Shown piece by piece: positions 39,167 through 64,000 of a stretch of DNA of 64,000 bases (positions are counted from its first letter, which is position 1; every line of letters starts with the position of its first letter). The notes below the pieces were generated by a model, which was not told where the DNA came from, searched no databases, and was given only the letters and a program-made list of their open reading frames with translations. The DNA lies in contig JANJTH010000829.1 of assembly GCA_024711205.1 (NCBI GenBank), positions 3,309 through 67,308 of the forward strand, given 5' to 3'. Position numbers and translations under genes: made by a program. Source of the DNA: Planctomycetota bacterium. GTDB taxonomy: Bacteria > Planctomycetota > J058.

Positions 39167-39170
39167 GGGA

Positions 39171-40486: not shown

Positions 40487-40494
40487 GCCGAGGA

Positions 40495-40525
40495 GCATAC
40501 GGTCCGTACCTAGGTACGGGGTCAA
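40495..40525 (-). promoter_or_regulatory. MerR-type promoter: -35 TTGACC, 20-bp spacer holding a perfect 16-bp palindrome CCGTACCTAGGTACGG, -10 TATGCT
   Basis: Minus strand reads cTTGACCCCGTACCTAGGTACGGACCGTATGCTcctcggcATG. The long spacer with a dyad operator is the MerR-family hallmark. Confidence 0.6.
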
Positions 40526-40637
40526 GGGACAATCGGCAGAGCGTAGAGCTGCGCGGGTATCAGGGCAGGGGTTGAGCACGATCGAGCATCATGGGCACGC
40601 GGCGCGACGATCTTCCACAACGCGCCGAGGAGCTGTC

Positions 40638-45365: not shown

Positions 45366-45551
45366 CGGGGTACCCGGAGACGTCGCCCCCACGGGTGCAC
45401 ATCGCGGGCGATCCCACGAGGCGATCGGCCAGCAACGGCGAGAGCTTTGCCGACGCGATCATCGTGCGGCGGTTCCGCGACCAGGCGCTCCGGCTCGTCC
45501 AGGAGCTGCTCGCAGCGCTCCTGCTCGTGAAACCCGGCTGGCTGAGCCGCG

Positions 45552-46370: not shown

Positions 46371-46501
46371 GGGCAGGGCGATACGCGTATCGAGCACGGG
46401 TGGCCTCCTTCCGACCTTCACGGAGGCAGACGCGACGACGGCCCAATGATTACAGCCGCCGACGCCGAGGTCGAAGCCGAGCGTGCGCAACGGCCCGACG
46501 C

Positions 46502-47131
46502 TCAGTGGTGGACGTGCCCGCCCGTGAGGTGCTTTGCGACGACGAGCGCGATGAGGATGCCGACGGCGATCAGCGCCACCTTGAAGCCGGCGGTGGACAG
46601 CGCTGCCGCAGGGTCGGCTGCGTCGGCCGACGGCTCGCGCCCGTACGGGGTCCGGCCCCACGGCTTGAAGATGCTCAGGACGGTGATCGCGACGAGGACG
46701 AGCAGCGCCAGGCCGGCGTCGAAGACGAGCTGCGTGCCGAGGCGGCCGACCTCCTCGCGGGGCAGCGTGCCCAGGGCGGCGCGGCTCACCCGCTCGGCGG
46801 CCGTGGCGACCGCGGTGAACTGGTGCAGGAGGAGCAGGAGCGTCGAGAGGACCGTGAGGACGAACTTCGCGGCCACCCAGTAGTGCTTGAACAGGCCCCA
46901 GGGCGAGGCGAGCGCCTGGAAGATCCCGCTCGCGGTCGAGGCGAGGCTCAGGGGCACGATCACGTAGCGGCCGATCAGGTCCATCGAGATGTAGGCGCTG
47001 CGCGTGACCTGCGCGTCGGCGCTGGTGAGGCCCGCGATGCTCAGGGCGAGGAAGGCGGCGACCGACCCGAGCCAGCCGACCGAGAGCACGACGTGGACGG
47101 TGAGCGTGGCCTGGCGGACGCGCGGGGTCAT
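46502..47131 (-). CDS. Hypothetical four-TM membrane protein, co-transcribed with the MarR regulator
   Basis: 'MTPRVRQATLTVHVVLSVGWLGSVAAFLALSIAGL...'. Start overlaps the marR stop by 4 nt. Confidence 0.55.
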   Translation of the reverse strand: MTPRVRQATLTVHVVLSVGWLGSVAAFLALSIAGLTSADAQVTRSAYISMDLIGRYVIVPLSLASTASGIFQALASPWGLFKHYWVAAKFVLTVLSTLLLLLHQFTAVATAAERVSRAALGTLPREEVGRLGTQLVFDAGLALLVLVAITVLSIFKPWGRTPYGREPSADAADPAAALSTAGFKVALIAVGILIALVVAKHLTGGHVHH

Positions 47132-47655
47132 CGCGTCCTCCGGGACCGCGCAGGGCGCGCCGGCTCGGGGGCGGCATCGAGCGCGTCCTGGCCGCGGAGC
47201 AAGACGCCGTGGCGCAGCATGCAGTCGGTGGCCCCGGCGAGGAACCCGGCGATCGCCTCGAGCTGGTCCTCGTCGAATGGCTCGAGGAGCGCCGCGACGT
47301 CGGCCCGGAGCGGAGCGAAGACCGAGTCCAGGTCGTCGAGCCGATCGCTGACCACCCGCAGCGACTGCTTGCGCCCGTCCTCCGGGTCGGGCTCACGCCG
47401 GACGTAGCCGGCCTCCTCGAGCCGGTTGACCACGCCCGTCATGGCGCCCGTGGTCAGGCCGGTCATCTGGGCGAGCTCGCTGCCTGTGGCCGCGCCGCGC
47501 TCCCGGAGCAGGTCGAGGACCTTGTGGTCGGTCGGTCCGAGCCCCAGCCGATCGGCGACGGCCTGGTGGAGGAGGACCGCCGCCGTGCTGTGTCGCCGGG
47601 CCAGCCGACGGACGATCTCCTCGGAGAGGGCGCGCTTGGTGCGGGAGGATCGCAT
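47128..47655 (-). CDS. MarR-family transcriptional regulator
   Basis: Winged helix 'LGLGPTDHKVLDLLRERGAATGSELAQMTGLTTGAMTGVVNRLEEAGYVRRE'. Start set at the internal Met (MRSSRTKRAL). Confidence 0.8.
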   Translation of the reverse strand: MRSSRTKRALSEEIVRRLARRHSTAAVLLHQAVADRLGLGPTDHKVLDLLRERGAATGSELAQMTGLTTGAMTGVVNRLEEAGYVRREPDPEDGRKQSLRVVSDRLDDLDSVFAPLRADVAALLEPFDEDQLEAIAGFLAGATDCMLRHGVLLRGQDALDAAPEPARPARSRRTR

Positions 47656-47706
47656 GCTGACTCGCTTAGTAACTAAGCTATCTGCGAAACGATCGGACGG
47701 CAACGC

Positions 47707-48795
47707 CTACTGGACGACGACGAACATGCCGGCCCCGTCGACGAAGCCGGTGGGCCGCGTCTCGCCGGCGACGGCGCCGGCGTCGCCCGACGCGACGACC
47801 GCGCCCTTGTCGCCGTGGACCTGCCAGTGGACGTGGTTGTCGCCGCCGACCCACGCGAACAGCAGGCGGCCGTTCGTGCCCCGCAGGGCGAGCGGGAAGC
47901 GGCCGCGGTCGCCGCCCTCGGCGGGCCGCGCCTGCGGGCCGAAGCCCTGGCGGCCAGCGGCGGCCAGGCCGACGCGGCCGTCGACCGTGCAGGCCACGAC
48001 GAGCGGCTCGCCCGACGCGACGCGCGGGCCGTCCATGGGGCAGCCGCGGAACTCCCAGTTCTCGCGGGTCACGGGCGCGACCCGGAAGCGGCGCGCCTCG
48101 GCGTCGCCGCGGAGGAGGAACACGTCGCGCACGTTCTCGCGCGCGCCGCGGAACGCGACCACGATCCGGCCCTCGCCGTCGACGCCGGCGTCGAGGTGGC
48201 AGCAGGCGCAGGCCCCGCCGTCGTAGTCGTGCGCGAGCGCCGCGGGCGCCGAGAACGTCTTCCCGCCGTCGGTCGAGCGGCTCCCCCACAGCGGCAGGCC
48301 GATCGGGCTGTTCGCCGGCGCCGGGCCGCGGTTGTCGAGCCACACCGCGAGCACGACGTCGCCCGAGGCCGCGATCGTGAGCCCCTCGGCGTCCTTGCCG
48401 CCCTGCCCGAGGAGATCCCGCGACGCCGAGAAGGTCGCGGCGCCGGGCGCGCGCGACGCGTAGCGCGCGCCGCGCAGGCGCGGCGGGCTCCACACGATGT
48501 GGACCGTCCCGTCGCCGCCGACCGCGAGCCGCGGGCCGCGCTCCATGGCGGCGAGGGCCTGCTCGCCCTCGGCGCTCACTCGCGCGGGCGCGCCGAAGGT
48601 GCGCCCGCCGTCGGTCGACTCGGCGTGGAAGATCGCGTCCCGCTGACCCCACGCCAGGTGAACCGACTCGCCCCGGACCGCGACGGCCGGACCCTTCGCC
48701 CCGTCGGGCAGCCGGTGGACCCGGACCACGTCGTCGGCGAGGGCGGCAGGCACCGCCGCCAGCGACACGAGCACGGTCAGCGCGATCGAACGCAT
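47707..48795 (-). CDS. Secreted BNR/Asp-box repeat protein (sialidase-like beta-propeller)
   Basis: Signal peptide 'MRSIALTVLVSLAAVPAALA'. Asp-boxes 'STDGGRTF' and 'STDGGKTF'. Confidence 0.65.
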   Translation of the reverse strand: MRSIALTVLVSLAAVPAALADDVVRVHRLPDGAKGPAVAVRGESVHLAWGQRDAIFHAESTDGGRTFGAPARVSAEGEQALAAMERGPRLAVGGDGTVHIVWSPPRLRGARYASRAPGAATFSASRDLLGQGGKDAEGLTIAASGDVVLAVWLDNRGPAPANSPIGLPLWGSRSTDGGKTFSAPAALAHDYDGGACACCHLDAGVDGEGRIVVAFRGARENVRDVFLLRGDAEARRFRVAPVTRENWEFRGCPMDGPRVASGEPLVVACTVDGRVGLAAAGRQGFGPQARPAEGGDRGRFPLALRGTNGRLLFAWVGGDNHVHWQVHGDKGAVVASGDAGAVAGETRPTGFVDGAGMFVVVQ

Positions 48796-48981
48796 GGAGA
48801 CCTCCGGTCGGGTCGTGACGCTACCGGTCGACGGCGCGCCGGACAACGTGCGCAGGAATCCGCGCTCGCGACCGATCAGGTTGCGGCTCTTTGCGCCCAC
48901 TCCTCGAGCGTGGTCCGCCAGACCTGAGCTTGCGGCGGTCTCGGTCTTGCACCAGCTCGGACCCCACGGAGGTCATCGACG

Positions 48982-50055
48982 GTGCAGAGACGCATTCCGC
49001 TGCAGCGCCGGCTCGCGTACGGCCTCGTCGTCCTGACGGCCGCCGTCGCCGCGGCCGAGCTCGTCTGCCGCGTGCGCGAGGCGCGACGCGGCGGAGAGTA
49101 TCGCTACGCGCCGCTCGAGCCCGACCCGCATCGCGGCTCGGTGCTCCGCCCCGGCGCGAGCTTCCAGCACAACGGCCGGGTCGCCCACATCAACTCGCTC
49201 GGCATGCGCGGACCCGAGGTCGGCCCGCGGCGCCCGGGCGTGCTGCGCGTGCTGTGCGTCGGCGGGTCGTCGACGTATGGGCTCGTGATCCGCGACGACG
49301 ACAGCACCTGGCCCGCGCAGCTCGGCCGCGAGCTGCGCGCGCGAGGGATCGAGGCCGAGGTGCTCAACGCTGGCGTCCCCTCATGGACGCTGCGCTCGAG
49401 CCAGACGAACCTGGAGATGCGGCTGTACGCGCTCGAGCCGGACGTGATCGTCGTCTGCCACACCTTCAACGACCTCGTCGCGCCCGCGTCGAACTACGTC
49501 GGTGACTCGTTCGCCGAGGACGCGTCCGAGCTGTGGCGGCCGTGGCGATCGAGCGCCCTCCTGCGGGGTATCGGACGCAAGCTCGACCGGATCTCGCCCG
49601 AAGCGAAGAGCGATCACGTCGATCCGGCCCTGGCCGAGGCGTTCGAGCGGAACCTGCGACGCATGGTGGTCCGGGGCCGGGCGAACGGGGCGGTCGTGGT
49701 CCTCACGACCGAGCCGCATTGCCTGCGGCCCACGCTCGAGGCGTCCAGGATCGCGAAGGTCCCGGGGCTCGAGCCCTGGTACAGCTTCTACTGCACCCTC
49801 GAGTACCCGCCGCTCCTCGAAGGGGTCGAGCGGTTCTACGCGTCGACGCGGTCCGTGGCGCGTGCGCTCGACGCTCCCTTCATCGACCTCGAGCCGGCGA
49901 TTCCGGACGACCCCGCGTTCTGGGGCTCGCCGATCCACCACACGGAGGCAGGCGAGGCGGTGATCGCCAAGCATCTCGCGAACGCCCTCGTCGAGCGCAG
50001 GGTGCTGGCGTCGGTCCGTCGAACGCGCGAGGTCGAGGTCGCGGCAAGCGACTGA
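48982..50055 (+). CDS. SGNH/GDSL-family hydrolase with N-terminal membrane anchor
   Basis: 'RVLCVGGSSTYG' is a block I GDS(x)-like motif. 'HHTEAGEAVIAKHLANAL' has the catalytic His near the C-terminus. Confidence 0.6.
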   Translation: MQRRIPLQRRLAYGLVVLTAAVAAAELVCRVREARRGGEYRYAPLEPDPHRGSVLRPGASFQHNGRVAHINSLGMRGPEVGPRRPGVLRVLCVGGSSTYGLVIRDDDSTWPAQLGRELRARGIEAEVLNAGVPSWTLRSSQTNLEMRLYALEPDVIVVCHTFNDLVAPASNYVGDSFAEDASELWRPWRSSALLRGIGRKLDRISPEAKSDHVDPALAEAFERNLRRMVVRGRANGAVVVLTTEPHCLRPTLEASRIAKVPGLEPWYSFYCTLEYPPLLEGVERFYASTRSVARALDAPFIDLEPAIPDDPAFWGSPIHHTEAGEAVIAKHLANALVERRVLASVRRTREVEVAASD

Positions 50056-50163
50056 GCGTCTCGCGCGCGCGACGTCGTCACATGAATGTGACGCGCGGCG
50101 TGAGCGGCTGGGCACGACAGGCCGGGAATGCTAGGGTCCGCCCTCGCGTTCCCAGGACGGCCC

Positions 50164-50595
50164 ATGGTCCGCTTCGTTCGCCCCCTCTCGCTGCTGCTCG
50201 CCGCGCTGATCGCGCTGGCCGGGGGGACGTTCGACCTGTGCGGCTGCGAGGGTGCCGTTCACGGCAGCCTGTGCGCCGAGGCCGAGCTGCCCGCGCCGGT
50301 CGCCGACGCCTGCTGCTGCTGCGAGCCCGAGACCCCGCCCGCGCCCCAGACCGACCTCCAGCTCCGCTCGGTTGGCTGCGAGTGCCCGGTCGTGCAGCTC
50401 GCGACCTCGCCCGCGTCCGATCCGGCGTCGGTGGTCCCGGGAGTCACGGCCGACCTGACCAAGGCGCTACACGTCGATCTGCCGCTGGCGCAGCAGGACG
50501 TGGTCACGGCCACCGACGCGACGAGCGCGCGCTCGCCGCCGCCCGAGCCGGGCGGCATCCGTCGACATCTCCTCCTCTCGGTCCTGCGCTGCTAG
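50164..50595 (+). CDS. Small secreted Cys-rich protein directly upstream of cusCBA
   Basis: Signal peptide 'MVRFVRPLSLLLAALIALAGG'. Contains 'LCGCEG...LCAEAE...ADACCCCEPETPP...VGCECPV'. Analogous in position and composition to the ORF at 26318. Confidence 0.4.
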   Translation: MVRFVRPLSLLLAALIALAGGTFDLCGCEGAVHGSLCAEAELPAPVADACCCCEPETPPAPQTDLQLRSVGCECPVVQLATSPASDPASVVPGVTADLTKALHVDLPLAQQDVVTATDATSARSPPPEPGGIRRHLLLSVLRC

Positions 50596-50790
50596 ACGGA
50601 CCCGACGGCGACCTTGGTCGCCGTCGCTGCCGGTCCGTACGCGCGTCGCCGACCCCTCTCGCCACTGAGGCGCATGAGGTTGGGTCCGCCTCGCGAACCC
50701 CTGTAAGGAATCAGCGCGCTCGCGTCTGCAGTGCGAGTCGTGCGCCAGGACGGCGCGCGGCGTGCACTCGGCAGATCGGGAAGGATCTCC

Positions 50791-52143
50791 ATGAGGCTTC
50801 CACGTTCACGCAGGCTCCGCGCCTCGGCGCTCGCGCTCGTCGTCTTCACGACGGGCTGCATCGCCGGCTACTCGGAGTCGAGGGCCGAGGCCGACCGGTA
50901 TCGCGAGTCGCTCCGCTGGGAGGACGAGGCCGACCTCATCGGTCCCAACGCTCGTCCCGCGGACCCGGGCGACGCCGCGTTCGTTGGAACGCTCGTCCCC
51001 GCCTTGGTCGCGGACGAGGTCGTGCGTCGCAACCCGGACGTCCGCGCGGCCCTGGAGCGGTGGGTCGCCTACCTCGAGCGGGCGCCGCAGCGCACCGCGC
51101 TGCCGAACCCCGCGTTCGCCTACCGCTACTCGTCGATGTTCAAGATGCACACGTACGAGCTCATGCAGGAGGTGCCGTTCCCGGCCAAGCTCCTGGCCGA
51201 CGGGCGCGCGGCGCTCGCCGACGCGCGCGCCATGCGCGCCGAGCTCGACGAGCAGACGAACCTGCTTCGCGCGCGGGCCGAGCAGGCGCTCGCCAACCTC
51301 CACCTCGCGCGGCGCTCGCTCGAGCTCGTCGACCAGAACGCCGCGCTCGTGGACCGGTTCATCGAGATCGCCAACTCGCGTTACACCGCGGGGACGGCGA
51401 CGCAGTCCGACGTGCTCCGCGCGCAGGTCGAGCGCGAGGGGCTGCGGGAGGAGCGGGCCATGTTCGTCCGCGACGTGCAGGTGGCCGAGAGCATGCTCAA
51501 CGTGCTCCTCGACCGGGCGCCCGAGGCGCCCCTCGGGCCGGTGGCGATCGTCGACGCGCCCGGCGCGCTCGAGCCGTTGACGGTGCTCTACGAGCGCGCC
51601 CTGCAGCAGCGCCCCGAGCTGGCGGCGTTCCGCGCTCGCGCCGACGCGCAGCGCGAGATGCTCTCGCGCGCCCAGCTCGAGTGGGTGCCCGACTTCGTCG
51701 TCGGCGGCGGCTACGTGCGCGACTTCGGCGAGGACGAGGACCAGGTCGAGCTCACGGCGGGCCTGTCCCTGCCGGTGTGGCTGGGCCGGATCCGCGGCGG
51801 GGTCGCCGAGGCCGAGGCGAACGTCCGGCGGGCCGACGCGGAGACTCACTCGACGCGCAACCGCGTGTTCGACGAGGTGCGCCAGGCCGCCGCGCGGCTC
51901 GCCGCGGCGACCGAGCGATCGACGATCCTTCGCGAGGCGACGCTCCCGCGGGCCCGGCAGAACGTCGAGGTCTCGCAGGCGGCGTACGTCTCCGGCCAGC
52001 TCGGCTTCCTCGAGCTCGTCGACGCGCAGCGCGTGTCGCTCATGAAGGAGCTCGAGCTCGAGCGAGTCCGCGCAGAGCGGACGTCGGCTCAGGCGGAGCT
52101 GCGCCAGGCCACCGGTGATTCCACGACGGAGGAGAGGCCATGA
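50791..52143 (+). CDS. cusC: Outer-membrane efflux factor (CusC/TolC family), lipoprotein
   Basis: 'LALVVFTTGC' lipobox. OMF helical repeats. Overlaps cusB by 4 nt. Confidence 0.85.
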   Translation: MRLPRSRRLRASALALVVFTTGCIAGYSESRAEADRYRESLRWEDEADLIGPNARPADPGDAAFVGTLVPALVADEVVRRNPDVRAALERWVAYLERAPQRTALPNPAFAYRYSSMFKMHTYELMQEVPFPAKLLADGRAALADARAMRAELDEQTNLLRARAEQALANLHLARRSLELVDQNAALVDRFIEIANSRYTAGTATQSDVLRAQVEREGLREERAMFVRDVQVAESMLNVLLDRAPEAPLGPVAIVDAPGALEPLTVLYERALQQRPELAAFRARADAQREMLSRAQLEWVPDFVVGGGYVRDFGEDEDQVELTAGLSLPVWLGRIRGGVAEAEANVRRADAETHSTRNRVFDEVRQAAARLAAATERSTILREATLPRARQNVEVSQAAYVSGQLGFLELVDAQRVSLMKELELERVRAERTSAQAELRQATGDSTTEERP

Positions 52144-53861
52144 CCGACCCGGCACCCGAGAAGACCGCTCCGGCTCCGGCCGGCGTCGATCGCCGCAAGT
52201 GGCCGCTCCTGGCCGCGCTCGCCCTCCTCGCCGCGTTCTTCCTCGGCATGGCGGTCCGGGGCGGCGGCGCGCCCCCGAGCGGACCACCCGCGAAGGGACC
52301 GGTGGCGACGGTCTGGACCTGCTCCATGCACCCACAGATCCGCCTGGATCACCCCGGGAGCTGTCCGATCTGCGGCATGGACCTCGTGCCCGTGAGCGCC
52401 GACGGCGCCGACGCGGGCCCGGTCGGCGACGACCAGGTCGCGCTGGGTCCGCACGCGAGGGCCATGGCGCAGGTCGAGACTGCGCTCGTGTCGAGCCGGC
52501 TCCTCACGAAGGAGCTGCGGACGGTGGGCAAGGTCGAGGTCGACGAGACCGCGGTGGCGTATCTCACGGCGCGCATCGACGGACGCGTCGACCGCGTGTT
52601 CGCCGACTTCCCGGGCACCGTCGTCGCGAAGGGCGACCACCTGGTCGAGATCTACAGCCCCGACCTCTACACGACGCAGCAGGAGCTGCTCGGCGCGCTG
52701 CGCATCGAACGTCAGGGCCCGGGCGGGCCGGCGGCGTCGACCGCCGCGCGCCGGCGCCTCGAGCTGTGGGGGATCACGCCTGAGCAGGTCGAGAAGGTGG
52801 TCGAGACGGGCCAGCCGCTCACGCACCTCACGGTCAACGCGCCGCTCGGCGGCACCGTGATCGAGAAGACCGTGCGGGCCGGCCAGTACGTGAAGACCGG
52901 CGACTCGCTCTACACGATCGCGGACCTGGGCCGCGTGTGGGTCACGCTCGACGTCTACGAGCGCGACCTGGCCTGGGTCCGCTTCGGCCAGTCGGTGGAG
53001 CTGACGGTCGAGAGCGCGCCCGGCCGGCGCTGGACGGGCACCGTGGCCTTCGTCGAGCCCGTGCTCAACGAGGCCACGCGCACGGTGCGCGTGCGCGTGG
53101 TCCTCGAGAACTCGCAGGGCACGTTCAAGCCGGGCATGTTCGCCCAGGCGCTCCTGCGCGCCCCGATCCAGACCGACGGGACCGCCGGCTCGACCGGGCT
53201 CGAGGGCAAGCACACGTGCCCCATGCACCCGTTCGTCGTCCGCGACGCGGGCGGGAAGTGCCCGGTGTGCGGCATGGACCTGATCCTGGTCCCGGGCGAG
53301 GCCAGGGCGCCCGCGCCGATCCTGGCCGTGCCGGCCGAGGCCGTGCTCACGACGGGCGTGCGCAGGCTCGTCTACGTCGAGGACCGGCCCGGCGTCTACC
53401 GCCTCGTCGAGCCCTCCCTCGGGCCAAGGGCCGGCGACCACTACCCCGTGCTCGGCGGCCTGACCGAGGGCCAGCGCGTCGTCACGCGCGGGAGCTTCCT
53501 CCTCGACTCGCAGTTCCAGATCAGCGGCAAGCCGAGCCTGCTCTACCCCGAGGGCGGCGGCGCCGCGGCCGGCCATGACCATGGCGGCGGACAGCCCGCG
53601 TCGGGGCACGAGGGCCACGCCACGCCGACTCCCCCGAACGAGCCGCCGGGCGCGCCGGCGCAGGGCCACACCGGGCAGGAGGGGCACGAGGGGCACGGGA
53701 CGCCGCCGCCTACGGCGACCGAGCCGCCGCCCGCTCCCGCCAGGCCCACGGCCGCGCAGGTCTACACGTGCCCCATGCACCCCGAGGTCACGAGCCCCAC
53801 GCCGGGTGAGTGCCCGAAGTGCGGCATGGACCTCGTGCTCAAGCCCGCCGGCGGGGAGTAG
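52140..53861 (+). CDS. cusB: Cu/Ag-type membrane fusion protein (CusB family) with three CPMHP...CPxCGM heavy-metal-binding repeats
   Basis: HMBD repeats 'WTCSMHPQIRLDHPGSCPICGMDLVPV', 'HTCPMHPFVVRDAGGKCPVCGMDLILV' and '[27 protein letters not shown]'. MFP core. His/Gly-rich linker. Confidence 0.9.
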   Translation: MTDPAPEKTAPAPAGVDRRKWPLLAALALLAAFFLGMAVRGGGAPPSGPPAKGPVATVWTCSMHPQIRLDHPGSCPICGMDLVPVSADGADAGPVGDDQVALGPHARAMAQVETALVSSRLLTKELRTVGKVEVDETAVAYLTARIDGRVDRVFADFPGTVVAKGDHLVEIYSPDLYTTQQELLGALRIERQGPGGPAASTAARRRLELWGITPEQVEKVVETGQPLTHLTVNAPLGGTVIEKTVRAGQYVKTGDSLYTIADLGRVWVTLDVYERDLAWVRFGQSVELTVESAPGRRWTGTVAFVEPVLNEATRTVRVRVVLENSQGTFKPGMFAQALLRAPIQTDGTAGSTGLEGKHTCPMHPFVVRDAGGKCPVCGMDLILVPGEARAPAPILAVPAEAVLTTGVRRLVYVEDRPGVYRLVEPSLGPRAGDHYPVLGGLTEGQRVVTRGSFLLDSQFQISGKPSLLYPEGGGAAAGHDHGGGQPASGHEGHATPTPPNEPPGAPAQGHTGQEGHEGHGTPPPTATEPPPAPARPTAAQVYTCPMHPEVTSPTPGECPKCGMDLVLKPAGGE

Positions 53862-53864
53862 GCC

Positions 53865-56800
53865 GTGGTCGCCGCGATCATCCGCTGGTGCCTCCGCAAC
53901 ACGTTCCTCGTGGCAGTCGCCGTCGCGGCCCTCATCGGCGCTGGCTGGTACGCGGTCCAGGAGACACCGGTCGACGCGATCCCGGACATCGGCGAGAAGC
54001 AGGTGATCGTCTACGCCGACTGGCCGGGCCGCAGCCCGCAGGACGTCGACGACCAGGTCACGTACCCGCTGACGATCGCGCTCGAGGGCACGCCCGGCGT
54101 CAAGGTCATCCGCTCGGCCTCGGGCTTCGGCTTCTCCATGGTCTTCGTGATCTTCAAGGACGAGGTCGACTACTACTGGGCCCGCAGCCGCGTCCTCGAG
54201 CGCATGAACGTCGCGCTCGCCCGCCTCCCCGAGGGCGTGCAGCCCGTGCTCGGCCCGGACGCCACCGCGCTCGGCCAGGTCTTCTGGTACACGGTCGAGG
54301 GCGAGGGCTTCGATCTGGGTGAGCTGCGCTCGATCCAGGACTGGTTCGTCCGCTACCAGCTCAACGCCGTCGAGGGCGTGTCCGAGGTCGCCTCGATCGG
54401 CGGCTTCGTGAAGGAGTACCAGGTCGACGTCGACCCGGTGAAGCTCCGCGCGCATCGCGTGACCCTCGACCAGGTCGCGTCGGCCGTGCAGCGCGCCAAC
54501 ATCGACGTGGGCGCGAAGGTCCTCGAGGTCAACCAGGTCGAGTTCTTCATCCGCGGCGTCGGCTTCGTGAAGTCGGTGGACGACCTGCGCCGCACCCCGA
54601 TCCGCTCCGAGGGCGGCACGCCGCTCTTCGTGCAGGACGTGGCAAGCGTGGAGCTCGGGCCCGAGTTCCGTCGCGGTGCGCTGGACAAGGCGGGCGCGGA
54701 GGCCGTGGGCGGCGTCGTCGTCATGCGCTACGGCGAGAACCCGCTGCGCGTGATCGAGCGCGTCAAGGCCAAGCTCGCCGAGATCGCCCCGGGCCTGCCC
54801 GAGAAGACGCTGCCCGACGGCCGCATCTCGAAGGTGAAGGTCGTGCCGTTCTACGACCGCACCGGGATCATCCACGAGACGATGGCCACGCTGCGCGAGG
54901 CCCTCACCGAGGAGGCGATCGCCGCCGCGCTCGTCGTGCTGGCGTTCCTCCTCCATCTGCGCGCCGGCATGACGATCGTGCCCACGCTGCCGCTCTCGGT
55001 GGGCATGGCCTTCCTGGCCATGTACCTGCTCGGCATCGACTCCAACATCATGTCGCTGGCCGGGCTCGCGATCGCGATCGGCGACGTCGCCGACATGTCG
55101 ATCATCATGACCGAGAACATCTACCGGCACGTCGCCATGAACGACGCGCGGTCCTACCGCCAGCGCGTCGAGGACGGCGCGACGGAGGTCGGGGGCGCGA
55201 TCCTGACCGCGGTCAGCAACACGATCGTCTCGTTCCTGCCCGTGTTCTTCCTCACCGAGCAGGAGGGGAAGATGTTCAAGCCGCTCGCCTACACGAAGAC
55301 GTTCGCCATCACGGCGTCGGCGATCCTGGCCGTGACCGTCGTCCCGGTCCTCGCCTATCACCTGCTGAAGCCGGTGACCTGGACCCGCCGCCGGTCGCTC
55401 GCGATCGCGGCCGCTGCCGGAGTGGGCCTCACGCTCGCGATCGGCCTCGCGGCCCGGACCTGGCTGCTCGGTCCGGACGCGCCGGCCCACCAGGGCTGGC
55501 TGATCGCGCTCGCGGCTGGCGTCGGCACCTTCGCGCTCGTCTACCGCATGACGCGCGAGCGGCTCCTGCCGCTCGAGGAGAACCTCGTCTCCCGCGGGAT
55601 CCTCCGCGTCTACGAGCCGGCGCTGCGCTGGGTGCTGGTGCACAAGAAGACGTTCCTGGCGCTCCCCACGGCGATCCTCCTCTTCGGCCTCACGATCTGG
55701 CTCGGCTGGGCCACGATTGCATCGCCGATCCGCGCCGGTCTCTCGCGCATCGGCCTCGACCCTGGTGGGCTCACGGTCTGGCAGCGGCTCGAGACAACCT
55801 TCCCGGGCCTCGGGCGCGAGTTCATGCCGCCGCTCGACGAGGGTTCGCTCCTCTACATGCCCTCGCTCGTTCCCGCAGGCTCGCTCACGGCCGCCAGCGA
55901 CGTGATCGCGCTGCAGGACGCGGCGATCAAGAGCGTGCCCGAGGTCGAGAGCGTCGTGGGCAAGCTCGGCCGGGCCGAGTCGGCGCTCGACCCGGCGCCT
56001 GTCGGCATGATCGAGACGGTCATCATGCTCAAGCCCGAGGCGCAGTGGCGGCGCGTGCGGGTCGAGCGCTTCTACTCGAGCTGGCCGTCGTGGCTGCAGC
56101 CGCTCCCGCGCTTCTTCTGGGCCGACGAGCGCGCGATCACGAAGCGCGAGCTGCTCGACGAGCTGCGCACGAAGACCGACATCCCGGGCGTCCTGCCGAC
56201 GTGGCTCCAGCCGATCCAGACCCGGATCGTCATGCTCCAGAGCGGCTTCCGGGCCATGATGGGCGTGAAGATCTACGGCGCCGACCTGCGCGAGATCGAG
56301 CGCGTCGGGCTCCAGATGGAGCAGCTCCTCCGCCACGTGCCGGGTGCCACCGACGTCGTGGCCGACCGGATCACGGGCAAGCCGTACGTCGAGATCAAGA
56401 TCGACCGCGAGCGCGCGGCGCGCTACGGCGCGAACATCCGCGACGTCCAGGACGTGATCGAGATCGCGATCGGCGGCCAGATGCTGACGACCTCGGTCGA
56501 GGGCCGCGAGCGCTACCCGATCCGGGTGCGCTACCCGCGCGAGCTCCGCGACAACCTCGAGGCGCTCGAGCGGATCCTCGTGCCGACGACCGACGGCCAG
56601 CAGGTGCCGCTGAGCCAGGTGGCCGACGTGCGCTTCACGGTCGGGCCGCAGGAGATCAAGAGCGAGAACACGCTCCTCGTCGGCTACGTGACGATGAACA
56701 CGCGCGACCGCGACGAGGTGAGCGTCGTCGAGGACGCCGACAAGCTGCTGCGCGAGAAGATCGCCGCGGGCGAGCTCGTCCTGCCGAAGGGCTACTACTA

Positions 56801-57398
56801 CCAGTGGGCCGGCCAGTTCGAGAACCAGGTCCGCTCGACGGATCGGCTGAGCAAGCTCATCCCGCTCTGCCTGCTCCTCGACTTCGTGCTCCTCTACCTC
56901 GGCTTCGGCCGCTGGTGGGTCGCGCTCCTCGTCTTCTCCGGGATCTTCGTCTCGGCGGCCGGCGGCTTCCTCATGGTCTTCCTGTGGGGAGTCAACATGA
57001 GCGTGGCCGTGTGGGTCGGCTTCATCGCGCTGTTCGGCGTGGCCGAGGACGACGGCGTCGTCATGGGGACGTACTTGACCCAGCTCTTCACCGAGCGCAC
57101 GCCCACCTCCGTCGACGAGGTCCGCGAGGTCGTCGTCGAGGCCGGCCGCAAGCGCATCCGGCCCTGCCTCATGACGATCGCCACGACCGTGATCGGCCTG
57201 ATCCCGGTGTTCCTCACCACGGGCCGCGGCTCGGACGTCATGCAGCCCATGGCGATCCCCTCGGTCGGCGGGATGGCCGTGTCCCTCATCACCTTGTTCA
57301 TCGTGCCCTGCATCTACTCGTGGGTCGAAGAGGCGCGCGTGCGCCGTCGTCTCTCGAGCGGGGCCCAGCCTGCGTCGCCCGTCGAGGCGCAGGCCTGA
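53865..57398 (+). CDS. cusA: Cu(I)/Ag(I) efflux RND transporter (CusA family)
   Basis: GTG start with a GGGGAG ribosome-binding site. '[32 protein letters not shown]...[28 protein letters not shown]' is the CusA consensus. 1177 aa. Confidence 0.95.
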   Translation: [1177 protein letters not shown]

Positions 57399-57460
57399 AG
57401 CCAGACGGCCGCCCTGCTCCAGGCGGCCCGCAGATCCAACCGGAGCGAAGGAAGCTCAGC

Positions 57461-58135
57461 ATGAAGACGTTCTTCAAGTCGGCCGCGCTGTTCAGCGTGG
57501 CCATCTCGATCGCGGTGGCCCAGGACGCCGCGCCCGCCGCTGCGCCCGGCCCGCACGGCGGCGTCGTCCGGCCCGTCGGTGACATGAAGGTGGAGGTCGT
57601 GATCGATCGCGAGGGCGTGCACGTGTTCGCCGTGAACGCCCAGGACCAGGCCGTGGAGCTGAAGGACGCCGCGGGCAAGGTCGAGGTCCGGCAGGAGGGC
57701 GCGGAGCCGAAGGCCGCGGACCTGCGCCAGGCGGGCGGCCGCGGGCCGTCGCGCCTCCAGGGCCGCGTCGACCTCGCGCGCGTGCCGGAGACGCCGACCA
57801 CGACCGTGCGCGTGGAGCTCACGAACCTGCCGGGCCGCACCGAGCCCGCGACGATCGAGCTGCCCTTCCGCCTGGCTCGCCTGATCGAGTACGTCTGTCC
57901 GATGGCCTGCGTCCCGGCCCAGGCCGAGGCGGGGAAGTGCAGCCGCTGCAAGATGGACCTCGTGGCCGCGCCGTTCATCTACGCCTGCCCCATGCACCCC
58001 GAGGTCACCTCGCGCCAGGCGACCGACAAGTGCTGGACCTGCAAGATGCGCCTCGAGAAGAAGTCCGAGAGCCAGCAGGGCGGCCACGGCGCGGGCGGCG
58101 GTCACGGCGGCGGCGGTGGCGGTCACCGTCACTAG
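57461..58135 (+). CDS. Secreted protein with two HMBD-like CPM...C..CKM motifs and a Gly/His-rich C-terminus (periplasmic Cu-binding accessory)
   Basis: Ribosome-binding site GGAGCGAAGGAAG. Signal peptide 'MKTFFKSAALFSVAISIAVAQ'. 'YVCPMACVPAQAEAGKCSRCKMDLV', 'YACPMHPEVTSRQATDKCWTCKMRL'. Ends 'GGHGAGGGHGGGGGGHRH'. Confidence 0.7.
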   Translation: MKTFFKSAALFSVAISIAVAQDAAPAAAPGPHGGVVRPVGDMKVEVVIDREGVHVFAVNAQDQAVELKDAAGKVEVRQEGAEPKAADLRQAGGRGPSRLQGRVDLARVPETPTTTVRVELTNLPGRTEPATIELPFRLARLIEYVCPMACVPAQAEAGKCSRCKMDLVAAPFIYACPMHPEVTSRQATDKCWTCKMRLEKKSESQQGGHGAGGGHGGGGGGHRH

Positions 58136-58289
58136 GTCGGCCTCTGCGGGAGCCCTCCGGCGCCTCAGGCGCCGGAGGGTTCGGGCCCTCCAGCCATGGG
58201 CGATGAACCCGATCCGGGACGGATCGCACGGAGCCACCTGAGCTTGTGGCTGGTCTCCTGCGTGCCCTGTGGGGACCGAGGAGCGCACC

Positions 58290-59150
58290 ATGCTTCGTAC
58301 ACATTCGGTCACGCTCGCCGTGCTGGTCGGGGTCGCCCTCTCCTCGAGCGTCGCGCTCGCCGACCACCTCTCCTACTCGCTCCGGGTGACCGCCTCGCCG
58401 AACCCGGCAGTGGGCGCGTCGAGCCGGGTCTACCTGCGCGTCCTGAAGCAGAACGGCTCGGTCGTGCGGCAGTTCGACGACCTGCACACCCAGCCCATGC
58501 ACCTGATCGCCGTGAGCCAGGACCTGGCCGACTTCCAGCACGTCCACCCGCGCCTCTCGCCGCTAGGGTACCTGTCGACGCAGCTCCGCTTCTCGCGTCC
58601 CGCGCCCTACACGCTCTTCGCGGAGTACGACCCGGCCGGAGCGGCGGGCGAGCGCACGAGCCGCCATGTGCTCCGACCCAGTGGTTCCCAGCCGGCCCCC
58701 GCGCAGCTGGACGGCTCGGTGGCGTTCGATGGCGAGCTGACGAGGCGCATGACCGTCGGCTCGACGAGGGTCTCGCTCGTGGGCGCGATGACGAACCGTC
58801 TGCGCGCAGGCGTCGCGTCGTCGATCCACTTGCAGGTCGACGACACCGGCGGAGCGCCCGTGGCCCTCGAGAACTACATGGGCATGCCCGCCCACGCGAT
58901 CGTCGTCTCGCAGGACCTGCGCGACTTCCTCCACCTGCACGGCATGCCGGCCGGTACGCATGGCGGCATGACCGGCGCGGTGCACGGTGGCCACCATGGG
59001 GGGCACGGGACGCCGCCGCCGTCGACCGGAGCGGTGGCGCACCTCTCGATCGATGTGAAGTTCCCGCGCGCCGGCCTCCACAAGCTCTGGGTCCAGGTCC
59101 AGCGCGCCGGCCGGGCGATCACGGTGCCGTTCGTGGTGCGCGTCGAGTAA
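58290..59150 (+). CDS. Secreted paralogue of 45552..46370 (His/Met-motif putative metal-binding protein)
   Basis: GAGGAG ribosome-binding site 6 nt upstream. Signal peptide. Motifs 'MHLIAVSQDLADFQHVHPRL', 'YMGMPAHAIVVSQDLRDFLHLHGMP', 'GLHKLWVQVQRAGRAITVPFVVRV'. Confidence 0.65.
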   Translation: MLRTHSVTLAVLVGVALSSSVALADHLSYSLRVTASPNPAVGASSRVYLRVLKQNGSVVRQFDDLHTQPMHLIAVSQDLADFQHVHPRLSPLGYLSTQLRFSRPAPYTLFAEYDPAGAAGERTSRHVLRPSGSQPAPAQLDGSVAFDGELTRRMTVGSTRVSLVGAMTNRLRAGVASSIHLQVDDTGGAPVALENYMGMPAHAIVVSQDLRDFLHLHGMPAGTHGGMTGAVHGGHHGGHGTPPPSTGAVAHLSIDVKFPRAGLHKLWVQVQRAGRAITVPFVVRVE

Positions 59151-59235
59151 GCGATCCCGGCGAGCGGGGGGGAAGGACACGCCCTGAGCCTCGAGAGCGC
59201 TGTCGATTCCGTCCGGGTCCGTGCACACTGACCGT

Positions 59236-59781
59236 ATGGCGAAGAAGGCCGAGCAGACGCTCGAGACCCTGCTGGCGAACCACGATCGGTTCCTGCGCTT
59301 CCTCGAGCCGCGCGCCGGCAGCCGGGAGGCCGCCGAGGACGTGCTGCAGGCGGCGTTCGTGAAGGGCCTCACGAAGGCCCAGGACATCCAGGACGGCGAG
59401 AGCGCGGTCGCCTGGTTCTACCGGCTGCTCCGCAACGCCCTGATCGACCACCACCGGCGGCGCGCCGCGGAGAAGCGCCGGCTCGAGGTCCACGCGAGCG
59501 GCCTCTCCGAGGCGGACGAAGACGAGGCGCTGCGCGAGACCGTGTGCGAGTGCATGGGCGAGCTGATCCCGCTGCTCAAGCCCGAGTACGCGACCGTCCT
59601 GCGGCGGGCCGAGCTCGAGGGCGCGTCGCTCCAGACGGTCGCAGGCGAGCTCGGGATCACGGCGAACAACGCGGGCGTGCGGCTCCATCGCGCCCGCGCC
59701 GCCTTGAAGAAGAAGCTGGAGGACGCCTGCGGGACCTGCACGGAGCACGGCTGCCTGCGCTGCTCCTGCGCCGAGGGCTGA
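59236..59781 (+). CDS. ECF sigma factor with a C-terminal Cys-rich extension (CorE-like, putatively direct metal-sensing)
   Basis: Sigma-70 region 2 'AEDVLQAAFVKGL...AWFYRLLRNALIDHHRRR'. Region 4 'LRRAELEGASLQTVAGELGITANNAGVRLHRARAAL'. Ends 'CECMGE...ACGTCTEHGCLRCSCAEG'. Confidence 0.75.
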   Translation: MAKKAEQTLETLLANHDRFLRFLEPRAGSREAAEDVLQAAFVKGLTKAQDIQDGESAVAWFYRLLRNALIDHHRRRAAEKRRLEVHASGLSEADEDEALRETVCECMGELIPLLKPEYATVLRRAELEGASLQTVAGELGITANNAGVRLHRARAALKKKLEDACGTCTEHGCLRCSCAEG

Positions 59782-59788
59782 CCGCTGC

Positions 59789-60442
59789 TCAGCGCGACGA
59801 GCCGGGCGTCGACTGGCGGCGGAGCAGCACGCACTCGACGTAGTGAGCGGCGGTGCACGCGCCCGTGTGGTGGTGGGCGCAGACGTCGCGGAGCGACGTG
59901 ACGCGCTCCGACGCCCCATGGAGGGACGGGTCGAGCGGGGACGCGTCGCCCTGGAGCTGGCGCAGGCATGGCTCACCGAGAGGTTCGCCGCCGGCGACCG
60001 AGAGCAGGGTGTCCGTCGCCGCGACCCGGACGTTGACGTCCTGGTCCGAGCTGGCCGCCTGCTTCAGGATCCGCAGCTCCTCGGCCGTGAGCGGCGCGTC
60101 GGCGGGGCGGCACACGCGCAGCGCGTAGGCGGCGGTCGTTCGACCCTGCGCCGTCGCGCCCTCCTCGAGCTCCTCGCGCGCCACGGCGAGCGGGTCGCCC
60201 AGGATCACGCTCTGCGGTCCGCAGACGTCCCCGGCCTCGAGCCGCGAGCGCGCGCGCCACCTGCTGAGGATCGGCGTCAACACGCAGGGCAGCACGATGA
60301 GCGAGAGGACGACGAACGCCGACCGCGGCCAGCGGCGGATCCCCGCCCCGCTCTCGGCGCTCCGGGCCGGCGGGCGATGGTCGAACTTCTTCGGGACCAC
60401 GGGGTGGTCAGGGGCATCTCCGTGTGGTGTCCGTGGACGCAT
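59789..60442 (-). CDS. Hypothetical membrane-anchored protein with a C-terminal Cys/His cluster, convergent to the sigma factor
   Basis: TM helix 'SAFVVLSLIVLPCVLTPILS'. C-terminus 'DVCAHHHTGACTAAHYVEC'. This strand's ORF looks more protein-like than the Arg-rich ORF on the opposite strand. Confidence 0.3.
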   Translation of the reverse strand: MRPRTPHGDAPDHPVVPKKFDHRPPARSAESGAGIRRWPRSAFVVLSLIVLPCVLTPILSRWRARSRLEAGDVCGPQSVILGDPLAVAREELEEGATAQGRTTAAYALRVCRPADAPLTAEELRILKQAASSDQDVNVRVAATDTLLSVAGGEPLGEPCLRQLQGDASPLDPSLHGASERVTSLRDVCAHHHTGACTAAHYVECVLLRRQSTPGSSR

Positions 60443-60630
60443 GCGTCTCCTCCGCCGGAGCGCGGTGCAGCACGTGCTGGACCACAGCCTGCCGGCCTCG
60501 CACCCGCGGGTTCGGTCGTCCGCGTCCCACGCGTGAGACGTCGAGTCATCGAAGCGCGATCGATCCGGCCCTCCCCGCCGCGGTGTAATGAAGCTCGGGG
60601 GGCGGCGTCTGCGGGATCGAGGAGTGACCT

Positions 60631-63039
60631 GTGACCCCGACGAAGACCGATTCCGCTGGCCCTGATCTCGAACACGACTGCTGCGGCGGCCACGGCGCTG
60701 GCAGCGCCCCTGCTCCCGCTTCGCCCGCCCAGGTGCTCGACCCGGTGTGCGGCATGACGATCGACCCCGCGGACGCCGCGGGCACGCACGAGCACGAGGG
60801 GACGAGCTACGCGTTCTGCAGCACCCACTGCCTGAAGGCGTTCGTGGCGAACCCCGAGCGCTACGTGGGTGAGCACGCAGGGCACGAGCACGAGGAGCAC
60901 GCGACGGAGGCGAAGGCCGCGGCGACGGGCACCGAGTACACGTGCCCGATGCACCCGGAGGTCGTGCGCTCCGAACCGGGCCCGTGCCCGCTGTGCGGCA
61001 TGGCGCTCGAGCCGAAGACGATCACGGCCGCGCCCGAGGACGACAGCGAGCTCCGCGACATGACGCGGCGGTTCTGGATCGGCATGGCGCTCACGATCCC
61101 CCTCATGGCGCTGGCCATGTCGGAGATGCTGCCGGGCGCGCCGATCCATCACGCGCTCGGCCGCGCGCTGAACTGGCTCCAGCTCGGTCTCGCCGCGCCA
61201 GTCGTCCTGTGGGGCGGCTGGCCCTTCTTCCAGCGCGGCTGGGCGTCGCTCGCCCACCGCAGCCTGAACATGTTCACGCTGATCGCGCTGGGCACGGGCA
61301 CGGCCTTCATCTACAGCCTCGTCGGCACGCTCTGGCCCGAGGCGTTCCCGCCCTCGGCCCGCGGCCACGGCGGCGTCGTGGCCGTCTACTACGAGGCGGC
61401 CGCGGCGATCACGACCCTCGTGCTCCTGGGCCAGGTCCTCGAGCTGCGGGCTCGGAGCAGCACGAGCAGCGCGATCCGCGCGCTGCTCGGGTTGGCCCCG
61501 AAGACCGCGCGCCGGGTCGGGGCGACCGGCGACGAGGACGTGCCGCTCGAGCACGTGCAGAAGGGCGATCGGCTGCGCGTCCGGCCGGGCGAGAAGGTCC
61601 CCGTCGACGGCAAGCTGCTCGAAGGGTCGAGCACCGTGGACGAGTCCATGGTCACGGGCGAGCCGATTCCCGTGGAAAAGCAGCCCGGCGACTCGGTGAC
61701 TGGCGGCACGATCAACGGCAACGGCTCGTTCGTGCTGCGCGCCGAGCGCGTCGGCAACGAGACGTTGCTCGCGGAGATCGTGCGCCGCGTGAGCGAGGCT
61801 CAGCGCAGCCGCGCGCCGATCCAGCGCCTCGTCGACCAGGTGTCCGCCTGGTTCGTCCCCGCCGTGATCGCGATCGCGGCGCTGACCTTCGTCGCGTGGT
61901 GGAACCTCGGCCCCGAGCCGCGCCTCTCGAACGCGCTGCTCGCGGCCGTGGCCGTGCTCGTGATCGCCTGCCCCTGCGCGCTGGGCCTCGCCACGCCCAT
62001 GAGCGTCATGGTCGGCACCGGCCGCGGCGCGCTGGCCGGCGTGCTCGTGCGCGACGCGCGGGCCCTCGAGCAGCTCGGGCAGGTCGACACGGTCCTCGTC
62101 GACAAGACCGGCACGCTCACCGAGGGCAAGCCGCGCCTGGCCTCGCTCACGCCGGCCGCCGGCCAGGATCCACTCGAGCTGCTCGGGCTCGCGGCCGCGC
62201 TCGAGCGGCCGAGCGAGCACCCGCTCGCCGCCGCGGTCCTCGCGGCCGCGGCCGAGCGCGGCGCGCCCTCGCTCGAGGCGACCGGGTTCCTCGCGGTCCC
62301 CGGGAAGGGCGTCACGGGCCGCGTGGCCGACCGCGCCGTCGCGCTCGGGAACGCCGCCCTGCTCTCGGAGCTCGGCGTCGAGCCCGGCCCCCTGGGGCCG
62401 AGGAGCGACGAGCTCCGCGCGGCCGGCCAGACGGTCGTGTTCGTCGCCGCCGACGGGAGGGTGATCGGCCTGGTCGGCGTCGCCGACCCGATCAAGCCGT
62501 CGACGCCCGAGGCGCTGTCCCTCCTCCGCGAGGCGGGCGTGAAGGTGGTCATGCTCACCGGCGACGCGCGCTCCACGGCCGAGGCCGTCGCGCGGGAGCT
62601 CGGGATCGAGGAGGTGCGGGCCGAGGTCCGCCCCGAGGGGAAGGCCGAGGTCGTGGACGAGCTCCGCCGCACCGGCCGCGTGGTCGCCATGGCCGGCGAC
62701 GGCGTGAACGACGCCCCCGCGCTGGCCGCTGCCCACGTCGGGATCGCCATGGGCACGGGCACGGACGTCGCGGTCGAGAGCGCCGCGATCACCCTCGTCC
62801 GCGGCGACCTCCGCGGGATCGCGCGGGCACGGCGCCTGAGCCAGCAGACGATGAGGAACATCCGCCAGAACCTCGTCCTCGCCTTCGCCTACAACGTGCT
62901 CGCCATCCCGGTCGCGGCCGGCGTGCTCTACCCGGCCTTCGGCCTCCTCCTGAGTCCGATGATCGCCAGCGCGGCCATGAGCCTGAGCTCGGTCTCGGTG
63001 ATCGCCAACGCGCTGCGGCTGCGGAAGGTCGAGCTGTAG
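60631..63039 (+). CDS. copA: Copper-translocating P1B-type ATPase with N-terminal YHS/TRASH and HMBD domains
   Basis: GTG start with a GGAG ribosome-binding site. '[36 protein letters not shown]' is YHS-like. '[26 protein letters not shown]' is an HMBD. 'CPC' in '[12 protein letters not shown]'. 'DKTGTLT', '[10 protein letters not shown]'. Confidence 0.9.
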
Positions 63040-63132
63040 GCGTCACGCGCGCAGGACACCGTCATGCGCACGTGACGGAGGGCCGCGTGCAGCTGCGCGA
63101 AACGCCGGCACCGTGATTGCAGTTGCAGGGGC

Positions 63133-64000
63133 ATGAGCTCGAACCTCTCCGCGCCTGCCCACGCGCTCGACGCCGACGCCGTCGCGCGTGGGCTCGCCAC
63201 CGACCCGATGCGCGGCCTCGCCCCCGACGCCGCCCGCGCGCGGCTGGCAGAGCTCGGGCCGAACGAGCTGACCGAGGAGCCGCCGGCGCCCGCGTGGCGG
63301 CGCTTCGTGGCCCAGCTCAACCAGCTCGTGGTGTGGATCCTCCTCGGGGCGGCCGCGATCGCGGCGGCGACCGGCGAGTGGACGGACGCGGGCGCGATCC
63401 TGGCGATCGTCCTGCTCAACGCGTTCCTGGGCTTCGTCCAGGAGGAGCGCGCCGAGCGGGCGCTCGCGGCGCTGCAGAAGATCGCCGCGCCCCAGGCGCG
63501 CGTCGTGCGCGGCGGCGCGGACGCCATCGTCGGCGCCAGCGACCTCGTCCCGGGCGACGTGGTCAGGATCGAGGCCGGCGACCGCGTCCCGGCGGACGCG
63601 CGACTCGTCGAGGCCTTCGGCCTGCGCGTCGACGAGGCGCTCCTCACGGGCGAGTCGGTCCCGGTGGACAAGGAGGCGCGGGGAGCGCTCGACGCGGCGG
63701 CTCCGCTCGCGACGCGGTCGAACATGCTCCACGCGGGGACCATGGCCGTGGCCGGGACCGCGCGCGCGGTCATCGTCGCCACGGGCATGTCGAGCGAGCT
63801 CGGCCGAATCGCCGGGCTCATGCACAGGCAGGAGCGCGAGCCCACGCCGTTGCAGAAGAAGCTCGAGGAGCTGGGCAGGGCGCTCCTGGGGGTGTGCCTG
63901 GTCGTGGGCGCGGCGGTCTTCGCGCTCGAGTGGTGGCGGGAGGGTCACCCCGGCGACGCGCTCCTCCTGTCGATCAGCCTCGCGGTCGCGGCCGTGCCCG
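63133..64000 (+). CDS. Cation-transporting P-type ATPase (P2/P3-like), 5' part only; runs off the window end
   Basis: 'LAELGPNELTEE' N-terminus. Two TM helices. Actuator motif 'DEALLTGESVPV'. 'PTPLQKKL'. No stop codon before nt 64000. Confidence 0.8.
   Translation, partial: MSSNLSAPAHALDADAVARGLATDPMRGLAPDAARARLAELGPNELTEEPPAPAWRRFVAQLNQLVVWILLGAAAIAAATGEWTDAGAILAIVLLNAFLGFVQEERAERALAALQKIAAPQARVVRGGADAIVGASDLVPGDVVRIEAGDRVPADARLVEAFGLRVDEALLTGESVPVDKEARGALDAAAPLATRSNMLHAGTMAVAGTARAVIVATGMSSELGRIAGLMHRQEREPTPLQKKLEELGRALLGVCLVVGAAVFALEWWREGHPGDALLLSISLAVAAVP

Follow-up and report, generated by a model that had tools for sequence, protein, structure and literature searches.

How is a sigma factor that ends in a cluster of cysteines and lies among copper export genes switched on, and which genes does it serve? 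The question is posed by a gene in a 64,000-nucleotide stretch of DNA from a Planctomycetota bacterium (GenBank assembly GCA_024711205.1, contig JANJTH010000829.1, positions 3,309–67,308 of the forward strand), which we refer to as the window and number from its first letter. At 59236–59781 on the plus strand, the window encodes a 181-residue extracytoplasmic function (ECF) sigma factor that we class as CorE-like (ECF44-type) on its Pfam sigma2 and sigma4_2 domains, its 57% identity to Myxococcus xanthus CorE and independent gene calls. We estimate a probability of roughly 80% that it is a CorE-like protein that acts as its own metal sensor, with promoters placed before copper export genes.

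The open reading frame (ORF) at 59236–59781 is a real gene. The frame is open from a GTG at 59221 (59221–59781, plus strand), and an ATG five codons further on, at 59236, yields the 181-residue protein; the same start is used by independent gene calls for an identical sequence on three metagenome contigs. GC contents of 0.73, 0.47 and 0.97 at the three codon positions form a typical coding pattern in a window of 71.6% GC. An initial annotation, made from the sequence alone, had described a complete ECF sigma factor with regions 2 and 4, a 'CECMGE' stretch and a Cys-rich terminal tail, and all of these elements were recovered. Pfam places a sigma2 domain at residues 15–77 (59278–59466, plus strand; PF04542, Sigma70_r2, 39.3 bits against a cutoff of 24) and a sigma4.2 region at residues 105–157 (59548–59706, plus strand; PF08281, Sigma70_r4_2, 35.3 bits against 25.7), with neither sigma3 nor sigma1, which is the ECF architecture. 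'CECMGE' spans residues 104–109 and the tail, ACGTCTEHGCLRCSCAEG, residues 164–181. The protein has cysteines at positions 104, 106, 165, 168, 173, 176 and 178: two in the linker CxC (C104-E-C106; 59545–59553, plus strand) and five in a terminal Cys-rich domain (CRD) of the form C165-x2-C168-x4-C173-x2-C176-x-C178, which also holds H171 (59728–59778, plus strand). AlphaFold models sigma2 and sigma4 well (mean predicted local distance difference test score (pLDDT) of 86), with a predicted template modelling score of 0.50 that leaves the arrangement of the domains uncertain. A sequence search of the PDB found no solved CorE-like structure; the best match, SigE (E 3.5e-10), covers sigma2–sigma4 only.

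The tail pattern C-x2-C-x4-C-x2-C-x-C is kept in all 120 of the best database homologues, and the arrangement of cysteines in the protein is therefore not a matter of chance. An alignment of 118 homologues shows C104, C106, C165, C168, H171, C173, L174, C176 and C178 to be invariant. Conservation of the C-terminal cysteines in orthologues, on which the initial annotation had staked its proposal, thus extends to all seven cysteines and to His171.

The group of CorE-like sigma factors, formerly ECF44 and since absorbed into ECF238, is defined by sigma2 and sigma4 domains, a linker CxC and a C-terminal CRD, in which four cysteines (C181, C184, C192 and C194 of CorE) are invariant, and its members work without anti-sigma factors. 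In our genome scan we found the corE locus of M. xanthus (L049), where a 211-residue ORF downstream of a multicopper oxidase gene has cysteines at 120, 122, 181, 184, 189, 192, 194 and 206, and Ala185; we identify it as CorE because these positions match the published numbering exactly. Alignment with CorE, which the initial annotation had proposed, gives 57% identity over 173 residues (E 6e-69) and brings the CxC and five of the six CRD cysteines into register at a constant offset of 16 residues, C206 being the exception. C104-E-C106 corresponds to C120-Q-C122 of CorE; C165, C168, C176 and C178 match the four invariant family cysteines with identical spacing (C-x2-C-x7-C-x-C); and C173 takes the place of C189. 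CorE (MXAN_3426; PMC3107203) and the window protein thus share a sigma2–linker(CxC)–sigma4–CRD layout, a residue other than Cys at position 185, the lack of an anti-sigma factor and a setting among copper genes, and one motif, TGTAA-N17-CGTC, precedes both the targets of CorE and the predicted targets in the window. They also differ. The N terminus of the window protein is 16 residues shorter, its tail has no counterpart of C206 or of the remainder of CorE's 38-residue CRD, and its gene sits in an operon position with no promoter site other than the distal cusC site. The predicted targets in the window include the CusCBA pump and a His-rich protein, whereas the CorE regulon has the multicopper oxidase CuoB and a small HMA protein.

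Published genetics assigns roles to individual residues of these proteins. The linker CxC is essential in both CorE and CorE2 (PMC4937300). In CorE, activation depends chiefly on C189, a residue that accompanies copper-gene surroundings, and inactivation requires C184; C206 has a minor role. At position 185 CorE has Ala, where CorE2, which responds to Cd and Zn, has Cys, and exchanging this residue alters metal specificity (PMC4937300). The window protein carries both marks of the copper subset, C173 at the CorE-189 position and Thr169, not Cys, at the position of CorE residue 185 and CorE2 residue 174; the CorE-185 position is never Cys among its 120 homologues. Comparison with CorE2 (MXAN_5263, an ECF44 protein; PMC4937300), which was made by published residue numbers and not by sequence alignment, shows a common CxC linker, a short CRD and no anti-sigma factor. 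The 28-residue CRD of CorE2 is nearer in length to the window tail than is that of CorE. The extra cysteine of CorE2, C174, adjoins the second CRD cysteine and sets the Cd/Zn response, where the window protein has Thr, and CorE2 regulates a cation diffusion facilitator (CDF) transporter, whereas the predicted targets of the window sigma factor are copper exporters.

The initial annotation had placed the sigma gene between cusCBA, two periplasmic-type proteins and copA, and these are indeed its neighbours. The cus operon (50791–57398, plus strand) encodes the outer-membrane factor CusC (OEP family; 50791–52143), a CusB-like adaptor with three HMBD motifs (52140–53861) and a CusA/CzcA-family resistance–nodulation–division (RND) pump, CusA (53865–57398; TIGR00914, 910 bits against a cutoff of 701). 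The window CusA is 41% identical to Escherichia coli CusA; its M665, M715 and M790 align with the Met triad M573, M623 and M672 of the E. coli protein, and its A404, D410 and E417 with A399, D405 and E412 of transmembrane helix 4 (TM4). We take the Met triad and A399/D405/E412, which are drawn from structural work on CusA, to be marks of a Cus-type heavy-metal-efflux (HME) RND pump for Cu(I) and Ag(I), and on these residues cusCBA is a Cu(I)/Ag(I)-type HME-RND efflux system. Downstream of the sigma gene, copA (60631–63039, plus strand) encodes a Cu(I) ATPase of the P1B-1 class whose N terminus carries YHS and HMBD domains (TIGR01511, 603 bits against 397). In the Arguello classification the P1B-1 Cu(I) signature consists of CPC in TM4, YN(x4)P in TM5 and M(x2)SS in TM6, and the window CopA has CPC447, YNVLAIP754 and MSLSS783.

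Because CusA and CopA carry Cu(I)-type signatures, Thr stands at the 185 position and the equivalent of C189 is present, the signal is most likely copper, possibly also silver, as judged from these sequence marks. It is unlikely that a protein of this layout senses Zn or Cd, as CorE2 does, or another thiophilic metal such as Ag, rather than copper. In favour of such a reading, Cd and Zn elicit a weak response even from CorE, one substitution is enough to shift the metal specificity of CorE-type proteins, the window protein has a shorter tail than CorE, and Ag(I) is another substrate of Cus pumps and P1B-1 ATPases. Against it stand the Thr after the second CRD cysteine, where a CorE2-type protein has Cys, the retained C189 equivalent and a set of predicted targets that are all of Cu(I)/Ag(I) type, with no CDF or Czc-type genes among them.

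The cysteines might instead bind structural zinc and sense nothing, in which case activity would depend solely on how strongly the sigma gene is transcribed or on a different regulator such as a MerR protein. Clusters of the Cys4 type often have a structural role, autoregulation of CorE-like genes is incomplete, and ECF238 also includes SigZ of Bacillus subtilis, whose cysteines have no known role. SigZ (TIGR02959; ECF238 subgroup 9) is the best NCBIfam match of the window protein and likewise works without an anti-sigma factor. The match falls far below the equivalog level (97.8 bits against a cutoff of 168.65 for TIGR02959, and 94.8 against 212 for NF007215), and SigZ, of unknown function, has only two C-terminal cysteines (PMC7826278). 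CorE and CorE2 both need the CRD and the CxC, and single Cys mutations alter induction or give constitutive activity. The strict invariance of seven cysteines and a histidine across phyla, together with metal-gene promoters, fits a sensor, and we consider a purely structural role very improbable.

The initial annotation had seen no obvious anti-sigma factor with a ZAS (zinc-binding anti-sigma) motif. We also found neither a ZAS motif nor an anti-sigma family among the neighbours of the sigma gene by Pfam, NCBIfam and motif checks. The small membrane ORF that had been noted as convergent with the sigma gene lies at 59789–60442 (minus strand), encodes a 217-residue protein with a single transmembrane segment and belongs to the metal island. 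It is a real, lineage-restricted gene, with coding-type GC at third codon positions and eight full-length homologues at 64–90% identity. The invariant extracytoplasmic residues are C74, C111, C159, C188, C196, C204, H175, H190 and H200 ('DVCAHHHTGACTAAHYVxC'), and the family always stands next to copper-island genes; the gene itself has no CorE-type promoter.

Could this protein be a non-canonical anti-sigma factor or a co-sensor? It adjoins the sigma gene and combines a single membrane span with a short N-terminal cytoplasmic part and a Cys/His-rich outside domain; anti-sigma factors can be short, as class II members such as CnrY show, and MXAN_5262, beside corE2, modulates the response though it is not an anti-sigma factor. 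The window protein, however, contains neither HxxxCxxC (ZAS) nor CxxC and matches no Pfam or NCBIfam family, and its gene, being convergent, is not co-transcribed with the sigma gene. Among 80 related genome loci a homologue occurs in one, 6 kb from the sigma gene, and on metagenome contigs homologues are convergent with other island genes, a His-rich gene (L081) or an HMBD gene (L082). In the closest relatives of the sigma factor (L084, 80% identity; L085, 79%), the sigma gene is followed directly by the orthologous copA promoter site and copA, with no such ORF. CorE-like sigma factors, moreover, function without anti-sigma factors. For want of a ZAS motif and of any linkage to the sigma gene in relatives, we rejected the convergent protein as an anti-sigma factor, and we regard any such role, or one as co-sensor, as extremely improbable.

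A self-sensing CorE-like protein raises the question of which promoters it would recognize. Compared by eye, the regions upstream of cusC and copA share TGTAA(G/T)-N15/16-GCGTCTGC. The window contains exactly three copies of the form TGTAA-N16/17-CGTCTGC, one each ahead of cusCBA, of copA and of the gene for a paralogue of the His-rich protein, and the looser TGTAA-N15-18-CGTC gives three matches against 0.15 expected. We scored these sites with a position weight matrix (PWM) built from 75 family sites; they reach 22–23 bits, the rest of the window does not exceed 8.2 bits, and the maximum in shuffled sequence is 18 bits. The predicted promoter of the cus operon (50702–50729, plus strand; TGTAAG-N15-GCGTCTGC, with 16 nt from TGTAA to CGTC; 22.4 bits, next best in the window 7.1) stands 62 nt ahead of the ATG of cusC (50791). 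That of copA (60584–60612, plus strand; TGTAAT-N16-GCGTCTGC; 23.1 bits, next best in the window 8.2) lies 19 nt before the copA GTG. The third site (46426–46454, minus strand; TGTAAT-N16-GCGTCTGC; 22.2 bits) precedes a lipoprotein gene at 45552–46397.

The motif derived from the window also marks the M. xanthus corE locus, with four matches against 0.08 expected. These precede an HMA-containing P1B ATPase (copB), a small ORF, the OEP–cuoB–corE operon and a gene for a 74-residue HMA protein; copB, the MXAN_3424 promoter that serves cuoB, and MXAN_3427 are genetically CorE-dependent. At the level of sequence motifs, the window sites thus appear to be of the CorE-regulon promoter type.

A survey of the 80 related loci (1.2 Mb) returned 84 matches to the motif, against 10 for reversed or complement-only control patterns. 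Sites number 0.27 per kb in the 1.5 kb around the sigma gene on either side, compared with 0.020 per kb elsewhere, an enrichment of about 13-fold, and 49 of the loci have a site near the sigma gene. The family consensus is sTGTAA(T/G)G-N15-sCGTC(T/A)GC. The genes behind 68 sites are mostly those for P1B ATPases (19), HMBD, YHS or HMA proteins, the sigma factor itself (8), MauE-domain proteins (8), cupredoxins and Cus components. Since eight of these sites serve the sigma gene, autoregulation is direct in some lineages; in the window it is absent or only distal. Sites directly before a CorE-like sigma gene include those at L009 2236, L034 1992, L066 4669, L072 9766 and L080 9859.

The two genes between cusA and the sigma gene are a different case. 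The initial annotation had proposed a search for a shared ECF-type motif upstream of cusC, copA and the genes at 57461 and 58290. The motif was borne out for cusC and copA, and the 58290 paralogue is likewise preceded by it; scanning with the PWM at spacers of 15–18 nt found no CorE-type site directly upstream of 57461, of 58269/58290 or of the sigma gene, and we dropped the idea that 57461 and 58269/58290 each have an ECF promoter of their own. Control of its neighbours by the sigma factor, as the same annotation had suggested, is accordingly indicated by the motif for cusC and copA, and the two periplasmic protein genes have no site to match. Any control of these two genes would therefore come by read-through from the cusC promoter. 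The 57461, 58269 and sigma genes come in turn after cusA and on its strand, each preceded by a short gap (62, 133 and 85 nt), and read-through into all three is possible. A scan of 57000–60700 for sigma-70 promoters and intrinsic terminators found nothing. Between the HMBD gene at 57461 and the next gene lies a GC hairpin (58153–58179, plus strand) with a perfect 12-bp GC stem, a 3-nt loop and no T-tract; the fold of 58130–58200 has a dG of -44.8 kcal/mol (z = -3.3). This hairpin is possibly a partial terminator or attenuator, or an RNA stabilizer of the cus transcript.

Both genes encode exported proteins. The first (57461–58135, plus strand) has a signal peptide in its translation, two HMBD motifs (Pfam PF19335, E 7e-11) and a Gly/His-rich C terminus. 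The second (58269–59150, plus strand; called from 58290, with 286 residues, in public data) is His-rich and matches no Pfam or NCBIfam family. Its predicted structure consists of two tandem immunoglobulin (Ig)-like beta-sandwiches (pLDDT 86.5), each with invariant histidines (H73, H78, H91 and H93 in one; H209, H222 and H224 in the other; motif DFxHxHP), and a disordered His/Gly loop at 232–248. A Foldseek search against the PDB returned generic Ig/FN3 tandems only, at template modelling (TM) scores of about 0.2–0.3, and no specific match. Some homologues have a C-terminal Cupredoxin_1 domain, and in planctomycete loci the family is fused to HMA-like and MauE-type domains. We consider this protein likely to be a periplasmic copper-binding protein.

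The lipoprotein behind the third promoter site (45552–46397, minus strand) is a 45%-identical paralogue of the tandem Ig-like protein. Its gene lies directly downstream of that site, about 4 kb outside the cus–copA cluster, after a gene for a DUF2269 membrane protein (46502–47131) and a MarR gene (47131–47706). A related arrangement recurs in four loci labelled Planctomycetota or Kapaibacteriota (L031 10937–12877, L035 4430–5794, L063 1996–3947 and L068 1190–3130), in which paired CorE-type sites exactly 307 bp apart precede an 84-residue ORF and then a protein of about 520 residues. The latter has an HMA-like N terminus ('TNLNCNxC') and a C terminus that is 25–28% identical to the His-rich protein of the window.

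We propose a one-protein pathway in which the sigma factor would be its own metal sensor. By analogy with the genetics of CorE and CorE2, the protein would be inactive without metal. Copper, which in the case of CorE is Cu(II), would bind the thiolates of tail and linker, probably together with His171, and would thereby lead to promoter recognition by RNA polymerase; the authors of the CorE work predicted a non-Cys ligand without identifying the residue. Reduction to Cu(I) would return the sigma factor to its inactive state and so confine cus and copA expression to a transient pulse. The targets would be cusCBA, copA and the His-rich lipoprotein gene, reached through TGTAA-N16/17-CGTCTGC. Transcription from the cusC promoter may run on into the HMBD, tandem Ig-like and sigma genes, and the sigma gene would then be under a partial autoregulation of the kind known from corE.

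Several points weigh against this account. Both the metal specificity and the Cu(II)/Cu(I) switch are carried over from a single characterized relative with 57% identity. The window tail ends three residues after its last cysteine, short of the equivalent of C206, and AlphaFold confidence for the apo tail is moderate to low, with pLDDT falling from 77 to 44. The published description of CorE promoters gives seven invariant residues in the -35 element and a conserved G in the -10 element 16–18 nt downstream, and equating the window motif with that consensus rests on gene positions and on this verbal description. No site stands directly before the sigma gene, and the hairpin at 58153–58179 could limit read-through. 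A MerR-family regulator encoded at 40070–40588 could also control copA.

Further features of the window surround the copper genes. The MerR gene (40070–40588, minus strand) lies about 19 kb upstream of the sigma gene together with a gene for a YHS/PDZ-domain protein (38399–39283, minus strand). In L084 a MerR gene adjoins the His-rich protein and sigma genes, and from this adjacency a second, MerR-type copper circuit may overlap the regulon; an overlap of this type has already been suggested for copA of M. xanthus. A perfect 18-bp AT-rich palindrome, CGTCACAT-GA-ATGTGACG, lies at 50076–50093 in a GC-rich spacer, upstream of a small Cys-rich ORF (50164–50595; 'CCCC'), and could be an operator for another regulator; the L084 gene at the position equivalent to 50164–50595 has a YHS domain. 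Between the MerR region and the copper genes, a 1,097-residue ResIII/DEAD-helicase protein (42072–45365, plus strand) suggests part of a restriction or defence element and surroundings that form an island of accessory genes. An Rfam search of 45000–64000 found no RNA family. The nearest genomes in our scan are metagenome-assembled genomes labelled Planctomycetota, with sigma, CopA and CusC proteins 65%, 73% and 64% identical to those of the window.

The CorE-like family, its motifs, the lack of an anti-sigma factor and the metal-gene neighbourhoods are all published already, and the window sigma factor leaves the present view of the family unaltered. Two elements may go beyond the literature: an explicit promoter motif that holds across phyla, and the recurrent tie of the tandem Ig-like His-rich exported protein to CorE-type promoters. 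Taken jointly, the proposal is that CorE-like sigma factors of Myxococcota, Planctomycetota, Gemmatimonadota and Acidobacteriota share one motif, so that their regulons could be read from sequence alone; that uncharacterized families, most clearly the tandem Ig-like proteins (58269–59150 and 45552–46397), are direct targets of CorE-type control in copper homeostasis; and that His171 is the non-Cys ligand of the CRD. We see the chances of this joint proposal as evenly balanced.

CorE-type proteins are the best-understood sigma factors that sense a signal directly, and only two have been studied, both from one species. The window sigma factor is a compact natural variant, with 181 residues and a minimal 17-residue tail that retains every functionally important cysteine, and it is paired with clearly predicted promoters and with copper(I) export genes. 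The locus lends itself to testing the Cu(II)/Cu(I) switch model, to the design of metal biosensors and to assigning functions to the His-rich periplasmic proteins that accompany such regulons.

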